Shown here in pieces: positions 29,642-33,731 of a stretch of DNA of 64,000 nucleotides. The notes below the pieces were generated by a model. That model did no database searches. It was not told the DNA's origin and saw nothing but the letters and a program-made list of their open reading frames with translations. The position numbers and the translations under genes are program-made. Origin of the DNA: Candidatus Blackburnbacteria bacterium RIFCSPHIGHO2_12_FULL_44_25 (GTDB lineage Bacteria > Patescibacteriota > Microgenomatia > UBA8517 > UBA10165). The stretch is taken from the NCBI GenBank assembly GCA_001816455.1, contig MHCB01000038.1, positions 7,965-71,964 of the forward strand, in the 5' to 3' direction. Each line of letters starts with the position of its first letter. Position 1 is the first letter of the stretch.

Positions 29642-29690
29642 TTGACATAGCTTCTCTATCTGACTACAATCTGACTAGAAACTGACTGAG
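29642..29690 (+). promoter_or_regulatory. sigma70-like promoter with three 11-bp-phased CTGACT direct repeats
   Basis: TTGACA (29642-47), 17-bp spacer, TACAAT (29665-70). CTGACT recurs at 29660, 29671 and 29682, ending at the ATG of the wHTH regulator. Confidence 0.5.
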
Positions 29691-31067
29691 ATGTCAACTA
29701 AAACCACTTCGGCTCCGGAAGTTGCCCCTCCTCTTACAATTGCCACGCTCAAAAAATATGCACAGGAAGTTTTTACGCCCATACGGCGGGGTGAGTGCGT
29801 AAGTACAATCTGGCCCTTGATGGCTGGTAGACGGATTAGGAATAAATTCATTATCTCCTACCCCGAACTTTTCTCGGAAGAAATTGGGAATCCTTCAAAA
29901 TATCTGCTTGTGTATGTTGAACCTTTAGAACTTACCGAAGAATCAAACAGCGGATTTATAAGACTTGTTGCAAAGTCTATTCTTGAGGCTTTTTCTCAAA
30001 AAAACACGAAGGCTTTTAAAATTGGCGCAGAACTTTCATTTGACGAATCATTAGGGTATTCGACTCTTCTTGATCGTTTAGCACAGCTTGTTTCCACGGT
30101 GTCTTCTTTTGGGTTGGCGACTGTTTTATTTTTGGGGGAGTTTGATGAGCTTTCGTTTGCAAATTCGATTCTGCACAATAATCTTAAATCTGTTTGGGCA
30201 AGAGCTGGCGGCAGTTTGCAGTTTATCTTTCTTTTGCAGGATGATGTTACCAGGCCTGAGTCTATTAAGAAATATGACGAGATAAATTCTTTGCTTTTGC
30301 GGAATGTAGTTTATGTTCCTTTGGTTGGGGACGAAGATATTGATTATCTTATTGATTATTTTGCGAAGCGTTTGGATAGGTCTTTTTCGAAAGATGAGCG
30401 GACTCTTCTCCGAGAAGTTTGCGGAGGGCATCCATATCTTCTTAGTTCTTGTACGAGGCTTATTGCTTTGATGAATGAATGTCAAGCTTCTCTTGAGGAG
30501 ATACGAGAGGTGTTGTTATCTCATTTTGAGCCGAGATCGGCTACTCAAAAGATATTTGATAATCTTTTACCTTCGGAGCAAGAATTTTTGAAGAACATGG
30601 TTTTGGGCAATGGTACTGCTGTTACCAATTTGCCCCCTTCGGTGTCCTCTCTTTTAAACTTGGGACTTATTAAAAAAGACGAGGAGGGCAAGTGGGTTCC
30701 GTTTGGAGAGATTTTTGCTGCTATCATTAAGGGCGATCAGGTTGAAGTTGCCCACTCGCCTGATTCGGGTTCTCACGGTTTGCACTACGATGAGTCTACT
30801 GGAGGAATTACTGTTGGCGGTGTAAATGTTGAAGAGAAATTTACGCGGCAGGAATATGATATTTTACGCTTCTTTTTGAAGGATTTGACCAAACTTCGGT
30901 CACGGGAGGAAATTGGTGAGGCCATGTGGGGCGAGCAGTCGTATGATAAGTATTCCGATTGGGCAATTGATCAGATAATGAGTAAACTTCGTAAGAAACT
31001 CAAAAGTTTAGGTATGGAGAAGGCCTTAGTTACTGTTCGAGGGCGGGGGTACAAGTTTTCTATTTAG
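29691..31067 (+). CDS. transcriptional regulator with a C-terminal OmpR/PhoB-type winged-helix domain and a large uncharacterised N-terminal domain
   Basis: C-terminus …TRQEYDILRFFLKDLTKLRSREEIGEAMWG…ALVTVRGRGYKFS (trans_reg_C). No receiver domain and no obvious P-loop. Confidence 0.65.
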   Translation: MSTKTTSAPEVAPPLTIATLKKYAQEVFTPIRRGECVSTIWPLMAGRRIRNKFIISYPELFSEEIGNPSKYLLVYVEPLELTEESNSGFIRLVAKSILEAFSQKNTKAFKIGAELSFDESLGYSTLLDRLAQLVSTVSSFGLATVLFLGEFDELSFANSILHNNLKSVWARAGGSLQFIFLLQDDVTRPESIKKYDEINSLLLRNVVYVPLVGDEDIDYLIDYFAKRLDRSFSKDERTLLREVCGGHPYLLSSCTRLIALMNECQASLEEIREVLLSHFEPRSATQKIFDNLLPSEQEFLKNMVLGNGTAVTNLPPSVSSLLNLGLIKKDEEGKWVPFGEIFAAIIKGDQVEVAHSPDSGSHGLHYDESTGGITVGGVNVEEKFTRQEYDILRFFLKDLTKLRSREEIGEAMWGEQSYDKYSDWAIDQIMSKLRKKLKSLGMEKALVTVRGRGYKFSI

Positions 31068-31070
31068 GGA

Positions 31071-33338
31071 TTATCTGGGAGCGTATTCTCTGAGCACTTC
31101 GTTATTGATATGTGTGACAGACGGGATTATCTCATCGGTAGACAGTCCCCTTTCTCTACCGCCGACTGCTTCTTTGCCCCAATGTTGGATTGCGTATGGG
31201 AGCGAAGTTTCTTTTAGTGCGTGGGGTTTTGTGCCTTCCGCGAGCTCTTTTCTTACTGCTGAGGAACCGGAGTAGGTTCCGGCGGTTATGATAACAGTTT
31301 CGATGCCTGTGTGTCGGCTGATTGCTTGGAAGTTTCGTATTGTTGTGTGAGTCGATCCGGGTCTTGAAACCAATATGGCCCCTGGTCTTGTTACCCTTTC
31401 GGGTTGTCTTTCTCGCGGAGCAAGATCCCTGCCTCCATTTTCCCATACACATTCTTCTGGCCCCATCAGTTGATAGCATTCCAATTCTACGTCCGGGTCT
31501 CTTCCGGCCTTATTTAAATCATTCCACAATTGCGCCTGTATGTTGTTTGCGGTTATGACCATTCTTTGGCTCATGTCGGTTTTTGTTGGGTCTGGTTGGA
31601 GTGCGGTGGTCATCATAACTTCTGATCGGTCAAATTCGTATCCGGAACCTAGTAGGATAGATCCTGTTCGGATTCTAATGGGACCCACGTGGGCTGTAGA
31701 TTTCTCGTAGCCCTCAACGTTTTGTGTACGAACTATGGGGAGTATGATTATGGCTCGTTGAATTGGTTTTCCGTCGCTCGTTGTTTGCGGAAGTGATTTG
31801 AGGTGGGCGTTACCGCACCAGACAAGATCCTCATGTCCTTTTGTCCAAGGGGCAAACGAACCAGGGAAGAAATAGATCCTAAAGATGCGGACCCCCGGTT
31901 TAACTACTTTGGAGAGGTCCACGTCTGCAATATCTTTCCAGGGGTTGATTCGAAGTTTTTCGGCAGCGTAACGGGCAGCATGGGGGAACGGAATGAGGCC
32001 TGCTCGCATGGCTTCCCTTCCAATATCTCGCACAAGGTGGGGAAAATAAGTAATGATGAGGTTGGTTAATGGTCCAATGTTGTCTATTCTGGCAGATTCG
32101 GCCGCCTTTACTAGGGCTTTGGCAATTTCCCTGTCTGAGAGGCCTGCGTTCTCGGCTTCGTGAATGGAGAGTGCTGCGAATTGTGCAAAGTCTTCGGGCC
32201 GAGGGACAAGTGATTTTTTGTCGGCTGTAACAAGCGACGTTCGGTAGGCATAACTGAACACCTCACCGTATCGCTGTTTAAGTTGCCTTTCTACAAGTTT
32301 GAGTTCTAGTTCGAGATCTTGAGCCCAGGCTTGTTTTCTCAGGGAGATTTGCAGTTTGGCAATAGAGTTACGCAGAGCGATAAAGGGTTGAAAGAGTATT
32401 TCGGCCTCTCGGCCCTTGATTGCTGTTGGGGGTTTCCAGAGGTCTGTAAGAGATTCTACATCTTGGCCGATTGTTGTTCCAATGATGGCTTTAAGAAAGA
32501 CAGTCGCTGCTTGGGCATTTTCTTTACTTGTGGAGATCTTTGTATCTAACCAGGAGTAGAAGACATACTCGGACTCTTTATATTTAAGAGTGTTTAGTAT
32601 GTCGAGAAGACTTTTGGGGATTGTTAAGTCATGATTGGGTTTATATATATTTGTGGGTATTTCCGTACTTGTTCTTAGCCCGTAGAGGCATAATGCCAGA
32701 GTGTTGGTGAGTTGAGTTACTACGTTACCTGGCTCGTCGCAGAGTCCCATGATTGTTAGTGCGTCCTCCAGGGTTTTTTCCAAAAGGACTTCGCCAGGAG
32801 GGGCAGGCTCTACCCAGGCTGTTGGGGTTCTTAGTTCGGCGTGAAGGTCTTCGCAAAAGGTAGTTAGGAGTTTGTGGAATTGCGGTTTGGTTAGACCGGG
32901 TACTCTTTGCGCCGGATCTTTGTGGGGTTTTCCTCTAACCAGCTTTCGGATTGGGTCAAGTTTGAGCAATTGAGCTCCCACCCACCTGACAAAGACGTTC
33001 TCTCCTTGTGGCATTGTTGAGCGTATTGTTTTCATGCGCTCTTCTACAAGTTTGGTTGGCCATCTTTCCACGATTTCAAGTAATTTTTCTAATTCTCCGC
33101 CTTTTCCTGGATAGAGTTCGACGTACCCGAAGGGAATTGGCTTTTCTCCTTTTACTGCGTCTTGTAGTGCTGCAATTAGTCCGAGGTGTGTTGTTACCTG
33201 TTTTACTATGTGTGGCACACCTTCAGGTTGGGCAGATGTTCCTCTTCCGTCGGGCATAAAGAAGGTTCCCGTTTCTCTTATGCCAAGGTAACGTTCGGAT
33301 AGTGCTGTCATTTGACTTAAAAAGGCCGCGGTTACCAA
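31071..33338 (-). CDS. large protein with a C-terminal cytidylyl/adenylyltransferase-like nucleotidyltransferase domain
   Basis: 755 aa. It has an (H/T)xGH-type motif FPGSFAPWTKGHEDLV and a C-terminal …TAGTYSGSSAVRKEL (ISSTxxR-like) motif of the NadD/cytidylyltransferase superfamily. The N-terminal roughly 470 aa is uncharacterised. Confidence 0.45.
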   Translation of the reverse strand: MVTAAFLSQMTALSERYLGIRETGTFFMPDGRGTSAQPEGVPHIVKQVTTHLGLIAALQDAVKGEKPIPFGYVELYPGKGGELEKLLEIVERWPTKLVEERMKTIRSTMPQGENVFVRWVGAQLLKLDPIRKLVRGKPHKDPAQRVPGLTKPQFHKLLTTFCEDLHAELRTPTAWVEPAPPGEVLLEKTLEDALTIMGLCDEPGNVVTQLTNTLALCLYGLRTSTEIPTNIYKPNHDLTIPKSLLDILNTLKYKESEYVFYSWLDTKISTSKENAQAATVFLKAIIGTTIGQDVESLTDLWKPPTAIKGREAEILFQPFIALRNSIAKLQISLRKQAWAQDLELELKLVERQLKQRYGEVFSYAYRTSLVTADKKSLVPRPEDFAQFAALSIHEAENAGLSDREIAKALVKAAESARIDNIGPLTNLIITYFPHLVRDIGREAMRAGLIPFPHAARYAAEKLRINPWKDIADVDLSKVVKPGVRIFRIYFFPGSFAPWTKGHEDLVWCGNAHLKSLPQTTSDGKPIQRAIIILPIVRTQNVEGYEKSTAHVGPIRIRTGSILLGSGYEFDRSEVMMTTALQPDPTKTDMSQRMVITANNIQAQLWNDLNKAGRDPDVELECYQLMGPEECVWENGGRDLAPRERQPERVTRPGAILVSRPGSTHTTIRNFQAISRHTGIETVIITAGTYSGSSAVRKELAEGTKPHALKETSLPYAIQHWGKEAVGGRERGLSTDEIIPSVTHINNEVLREYAPR

Positions 33339-33509
33339 CCGGGCCTTTTTTAGATTGGCTTATTTTAGTCCTGCTTGGGCTTGCTTTCAACTTAGTCAGG
33401 AAAATCAGTTTCGATTTGTGGCTAATTTACTAGATTCAAGTCAAGTTGGAGTCAAGCGGATACTGTTTTACCGGTTTAGTATTTAACTTATGAAAGGAGG
33501 ATTAGCAAG

Positions 33510-33731
33510 ATGACACAACAAAGAGTTGTCGAGCCCGTACAGGAATGGTTACTTGCTCAAGGTCGCTGCACCGGATGCGGTGAGTCACTTGAGGAAGCTG
33601 AGAAGCAGGAGTGCCAAGGGTTTTGGATGGTTATATGCCAGTGCGAGCGCGTTTTTATATATGACGCGCGAACTGGCGTTTATCGAAGACGTGCGTTGAG
33701 GGGTGTATCAAGTTGGAGAGGAGCGTATTAA
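33510..33731 (+). CDS. small Cys-containing protein (zinc-ribbon-like)
   Basis: Strong RBS GAAAGGAGG 8 nt upstream of the ATG, CxxC…CxC pattern, followed by a strong terminator. Confidence 0.55.
   Translation: MTQQRVVEPVQEWLLAQGRCTGCGESLEEAEKQECQGFWMVICQCERVFIYDARTGVYRRRALRGVSSWRGAY

Follow-up and report, generated by a model that had tools for sequence, protein, structure and literature searches.

The window analysed here, 64 kb of DNA from an uncultivated candidate phyla radiation (CPR) bacterium of Microgenomates type, contains two convergent genes, one for a regulator and one for a much larger partner, whose stop codons lie tail to tail, separated by 3 nt (Table 1). The sequence-only reading had described such a convergent pair, and its open reading frames, motifs, promoter and repeats are all where it placed them; the association of the gene pair with this promoter and these repeats is real and confirmed in the sequence. 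The genes flanking the pair have housekeeping functions (PheT, ThrRS, a Mur ligase and a GTPase). Separately, a block of ORFans of higher G+C adjoins the pair in the window.

Table 1. Positions of genes, protein domains, motifs and regulatory features in the 64-kb window (aa, residue numbers of the protein concerned).
Feature	Position	Strand	Details
Regulator promoter	29642-29670	+	-35 TTGACA 29642-29647, 17-nt spacer, -10 TACAAT 29665-29670
Putative operator O1	29660-29687	+	three direct CTGACT repeats, starts 29660, 29671, 29682
Regulator gene	29691-31067	+	458 aa; AAA+, internal winged helix, linker, OmpR/PhoB-type winged helix
Regulator, predicted AAA+ domain	about aa 15-290	+	Foldseek on AF2 model
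Degenerate Walker A	29820-29849	+	MAGRRIRNKF
Walker B-like	30123-30152	+	VLFLGEFDEL
CGGHPYL motif	30420-30440	+	
Regulator, small internal winged helix	about aa 294-347	+	
Regulator, OmpR/PhoB-type winged helix	aa 361-458	+	Pfam, PDB profile, Foldseek
Recognition-helix region	30951-31001	+	YSDWAIDQIMSKLRKKL
Partner gene	31071-33338	-	755 aa as called; ORF list
Partner, predicted HIGH-signature nucleotidyltransferase-like domain	31134-31907	-	C-terminal, about aa 478-735
SGSSAVRKEL	31242-31271	-	aa 690-699
LQPDP	31587-31601	-	
YEKSTAHVGPIRIR motif	31668-31709	-	C-terminal domain
TKGHEDLV	31821-31844	-	aa 499-506
GSFAPWTKGH	31833-31862	-	
Partner, all-helical (alpha-solenoid) region	31929-33215	-	N-terminal, about aa 42-470
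Leader hairpin flanked by A- and U-runs	33318-33348	-	AAAGGCCCGG-TTGGTAA-CCGCGGCCTTTTT; terminator-like scan
Promoter-like site of partner gene	33362-33390	-	TTGAAA 33390-33385, 17 nt, TAAAAT 33367-33362
Cis-element O2	33394-33458	-	GCTTGACT..TTGACT..CTAGTAA.TTAGCCAC...CTGATTTTCCTGACT
Zinc-ribbon-like protein gene	33510-33731	+	73 aa, Cys4; QxWLLxxGRCxxCG...CxC; divergent from partner gene

Repeat elements at the two promoters

The near-consensus sigma70 promoter claimed immediately before the regulator gene matches 11 of 12 positions in a consensus scan, and since the ATG lies 21 nt past the -10 hexamer a leader of just 13-14 nt or so would be expected. The three CTGACT repeats of O1, likewise found as originally described, are in exact 11-bp phase; the first runs into the -10, the second follows it and the third lies inside the short leader. 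The pattern CTGACT-N5-CTGACT, allowing at most one mismatch, has two matches in the window, both at O1, where 0.25 would be expected, and one of 100 shuffles reached two matches. This layout, of -35, repeat, -10, repeat and repeat, recurs at orthologous promoters, being preserved nearly base for base in loci L003, L004 and L005 at a regulator identity of only 53-58%. An alignment of 12 ortholog promoters shows little or no variation in the -35 TTGAC and the -10 and none in the repeat columns, while the spacer varies. Of 15 ortholog promoters, 13 have CTGA[C/G]T repeats that overlap the -10; no CTGACT repeats occur at the regulator promoters of L010 and L011, despite an unchanged recognition helix. 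Direct repeats of CTGAC/CTGAG are also present upstream of paralogous regulators.

The partner gene has a promoter-like site of its own, with 10 of 12 consensus matches, and equivalent canonical promoters lie downstream of the conserved element in L006, L008, L014 and L015. That element closes with a CTGAGTTTYCTGAGT pair, which precedes the -35 by 3-9 nt (by 22 nt in a single locus); in the window the interval between O2 and the -35 is 3 nt. The O2 block aligns in eight loci, with GCTTGA and CTGA.T.T.CTGA invariant, and shows no RNA structure on either strand. The closest relatives, L003-L005, do not have the full element in intact form, and in L006 it precedes a different ORFan. A relaxed repeat-pair pattern has four matches in the 64 kb, every one of them at one or other promoter of the gene pair, the patterns having been partly defined after the sites were seen.

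Between the partner promoter and an in-frame ATG at 33311 there is a leader hairpin (dG -19 kcal/mol, z -4.2 on RNA folding) that overlaps the annotated TTG start; hairpins of differing sequence are found at the same position in L003, L004, L008 and L012. The first 40 or so residues of the partner are unconserved and modelled with low confidence (pLDDT below 50 for residues 1-41 in AF2; the family HMM match begins at about residue 32), so the true start may be this ATG (codon 10) or another at 33257 (codon 28).

Domain composition of the two proteins

The regulator had been read as an OmpR/PhoB-type winged helix lacking a receiver, and profile searches bear this out: its C-terminus matches Trans_reg_C (Pfam, E 3.3e-14) and the DNA-binding domains of PhoB, AdeR and ArlR (E about 1e-12; PDB profile search for the first two), and its closest folds in Foldseek are 1gxp/9dlu. 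The peptide KYSDWAID, in the recognition-helix region, is the most conserved of the whole regulator family. The N-terminal part, previously left as a domain of unknown function, can now be assigned a fold. In the AF2 model (pLDDT 89) it is closest to 2qen, 2v1u, 2fna and 1fnn, and on this basis is an Orc1/Cdc6- or archaeal-ATPase-like AAA+ domain that keeps Walker B and has lost the Gly and Ser/Thr of Walker A. Because Walker A is degenerate, nucleotide sensing by the regulator is a guess.

An exhaustive search for the partner in 1.84 billion proteins returned 55 representatives, and an identical protein is encoded on two JGI contigs. As a single sequence it has no Pfam or NCBIfam match even at E<=1, and no specific relative was found for the N-terminal alpha-solenoid of about 470 aa. 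The profile of the 34-member family matches only structures of phosphopantetheine adenylyltransferase (PPAT), through TxGH (best E 1.7e-4 full-length, 3e-5 with the C-terminal domain), and the similarity is located in the beta1-TxGH-alpha1 stretch of about 30 residues. PF01467 is matched below threshold by 9 of the 34 members, the GH of TxGH is invariant in all of them, and the L004 partner carries a canonical HKGH. The AF2 model (pLDDT 88.4, pTM 0.85) pairs the C-terminal domain with NMNAT/NadD at a Foldseek probability of 1.0. The C-terminal part has an NMNAT/NadD/PPAT-type nucleotidyltransferase fold, and the PPAT profile matches back the assignment that had been made from TKGHEDLV and SGSSAVRKEL; the domain is predicted to be catalytic. 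The further suggestion of a nucleotide-modifying or signal-generating enzyme is speculative. Catalysis may not be universal among partners, since some have degenerate motifs (TxAH in L007, L009 and L010/L011; PHLGY in L013; no SST in L014). The suggestion that such a domain at the C-terminus of so large a protein is atypical holds in part: HldE and CitC are multidomain proteins with a C-terminal HIGH-type nucleotidyltransferase, so the position is not unprecedented, but no annotated counterpart was found for the combination of alpha-solenoid and NMNAT-like domain.

Unlike NMNAT/NadD/NadM, PPAT (CoaD) and PF01467 proteins generally, the partner domain falls below every curated family threshold, is about 260-280 aa long with insertions, does not conserve the arginine of ISSTxxR, is fused behind the alpha-solenoid, and evolves fast: in the same genome pairs partners are 29-32% identical and regulators 53-58%. 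One alternative is that the partner is the organism's NAD-salvage adenylyltransferase (NMNAT/NadD) with an N-terminal extension, and the regulator a CPR counterpart of NadR, NrtR or NiaR that senses NAD or ATP and controls NAD salvage. In L003 and L005 a NUDIX gene directly adjoins the partner, its best NCBIfam match, sub-threshold, being the ADP-compound hydrolase NudE, with weak matches to NAD diphosphatase and NadM-Nudix, and we count in favour of NAD salvage a P...Y.K......R after strand 2 of the partner, which resembles the NMNAT signature 'SPV.D.Y.KK.L....HR'. An NMNAT-fold enzyme, a DNA-binding regulator and a NudE-like neighbour do recall the theme of NadR and NadM-Nudix. However, regulator and enzyme are here separate proteins of unrelated families, NadR itself gives the partner no more than a marginal match (E 1.0), and the partner matches no NadD, NadM or NMNAT model at the sequence level, its only similarity being to PPAT. 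Its rapid evolution, with degenerate motifs in some lineages, would be odd for an essential housekeeping enzyme, and the NUDIX gene adjoins in only two of about 15 loci. We therefore regard a role in NAD salvage as rather unlikely.

Conservation of the regulator-partner pairing

The two genes occur together in every ortholog locus examined for their co-occurrence: an ORF of 557-755 aa abuts the 3' end of the regulator in 15 of 15 distinct loci, window included, and this adjacency holds at regulator identities down to about 38%. The genes are convergent with 3' overlap in some loci and co-directional and operon-like in others. The partners fall into three very divergent groups (A, B and C), of which B and C are beyond the reach of the HMM, and yet GxxxP(H/T)x(G/A)H and HSSYIR / SST stand at the same relative position. 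The former motif, or a close TxAH variant, is found in the partner of at least ten loci, including members of each group; G.[FYL].P.[HT].[GA]H is absent from all other ORFs of 80 aa or longer in the roughly 0.76 Mb of CPR DNA analysed. In hhalign, groups A and B align with their motifs in register at modest support (E 4.9e-4, probability 32%), and A and C weakly (probability 11.5%). Groups A and B do not separate in a simple NJ tree built from the regulators, where L006 stands beside L008, so partners have been exchanged or rearranged and not simply co-inherited.

The mismatch between partner groups and the regulator tree could be read as the absence of any functional link, with the regulator acting as a general transcription factor beside a large gene that is a mere syntenic neighbour; the neighbourhood is partly syntenic for unrelated genes too (the GTPase, UvrA/UvrB and the zinc-ribbon gene). 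We consider this very unlikely given the unbroken adjacency, in both gene orientations, across such divergent regulators, and the regulator-type repeat pair at the partner promoter in the window, L015 and L014; in L008, where the partner belongs to an operon-like unit, this repeat pair lies at the unit's promoter.

Strict pairing despite wide partner divergence would also suit a self-contained synthase-receptor circuit, in which the product of the nucleotidyltransferase domain, an adenylylated small molecule or a dinucleotide, would be bound as effector by the regulator's degenerate AAA+ pocket. Retention of Walker B and of the P-loop Gly/Lys spacing (G46xxxxN51K52F53), with loss of the Mg-binding Ser/Thr, fits binding without hydrolysis, and each paralogous regulator adjoins its own large unannotated gene. 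The partners beside paralogous regulators, however, have no nucleotidyltransferase motif, so ligand synthesis is not the general logic of the regulator family; the idea is entirely inferential, and a local regulator sitting beside its target gene explains the adjacency equally well and more simply. We judge such a circuit highly improbable.

The very fast divergence and ORFan status of the partner and of its counterparts beside paralogs, together with the adjoining ORFan block, might instead indicate a cassette for conflict, defence or host interaction, in which a STAND/AAA+-type sensor-regulator would be coupled to an effector that diversifies rapidly. Yet the pair has no PADLOC matches, no relatives on viral contigs and no PHROG match except to the winged-helix domain, while the regulator is well conserved and in a housekeeping context; we know of no HIGH-type nucleotidyltransferase that serves as a defence effector, which we also count against this explanation. 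It seems to us extremely improbable.

Profile support, co-occurrence of the genes and repeats at orthologous promoters, on any of which the sequence-only reading could have failed, were all found. Our preferred interpretation, which we hold to be reasonably probable as a whole, is that regulator and large partner form a lineage-specific, autoregulated regulator-enzyme module of Microgenomates-type CPR bacteria, consisting of two genes and possibly a third.

A proposed circuit and its analogues

We infer every mechanistic step of this module. The C-terminal winged helix would recognise directly repeated CTGA(C/G)T sites at 9-11 bp spacing, with the AAA+ domain most likely acting as a nucleotide-binding oligomerisation switch that arranges protomers head to tail along the repeats. 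The O1 repeats cover -17 to +11 of the regulator's own promoter, so binding should block RNA polymerase; this geometry and its conservation point to negative autoregulation. At O2 the repeat pair would occupy an activator-like position upstream of the promoter that drives the partner gene. No terminator separates the two genes, whose 3' ends abut or overlap, and so repression of the regulator promoter during activation of the partner's might, speculatively, also relieve convergent transcription. The partner, a cytosolic protein in which the alpha-solenoid precedes a divergent nucleotidyltransferase domain with the HIGH signature (TxGH ... SS), would use some phosphorylated compound as acceptor of a nucleotidyl group, which is probably AMP donated by ATP.

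The elements of this circuit have analogues in other systems. OmpR/PhoB winged-helix effector domains bind tandem 11-bp direct repeats (PDB 1GXP), and the regulator resembles PhoB both in its C-terminal structure (TM 0.75, 32% identity) and in a target made of direct hexamer repeats in 11-bp phase (9-11 bp spacing in relatives). It differs in having an N-terminal AAA+ input module in place of a receiver, so control by phosphorylation is not expected, and whereas the pho box replaces the -35, the sites here overlap -10/+1, a repressor geometry. Orc1/Cdc6, archaeal PF01637-type ATPases (2qen, 2fna) and DnaA have an AAA+ module followed by a DNA-binding winged helix or HTH and assemble on repeat arrays. 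With these proteins, the source of the best Foldseek matches (E 1e-6 to 1e-5) to residues about 15-350, the regulator shares an AAA+ base, lid, winged helix and a DNA target arrayed as 3-6 repeats, but adds an OmpR-type winged helix, has a Walker A without GK[ST] and would act at a promoter, not an origin. SARP/AfsR and SARP-LAL proteins join an OmpR-type winged helix to BTAD and in some cases a STAND ATPase, and recognise heptameric direct repeats at 11-bp spacing (PMC5930380). The regulator has the same pairing of OmpR-type winged helix with a P-loop NTPase of STAND/AAA+ kind, and short direct repeats spaced by roughly a turn of the helix; however, its domain order is reversed, with the winged helix C-terminal, it has no BTAD, its ATPase, with degenerate Walker A, is closest to Orc1/Cdc6 and the archaeal ATPases PAB2304/SSO1545 and not to NB-ARC, and its hosts are CPR bacteria rather than actinomycetes.

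The candidate third gene encodes the small zinc-ribbon-like protein, which has no Pfam, NCBIfam or PHROG match. By tblastn and HMM it adjoins the module in L003, L004, L005, L008 and L015, and it also lies beside paralogous regulators in L017-L019; it is a possible further component.

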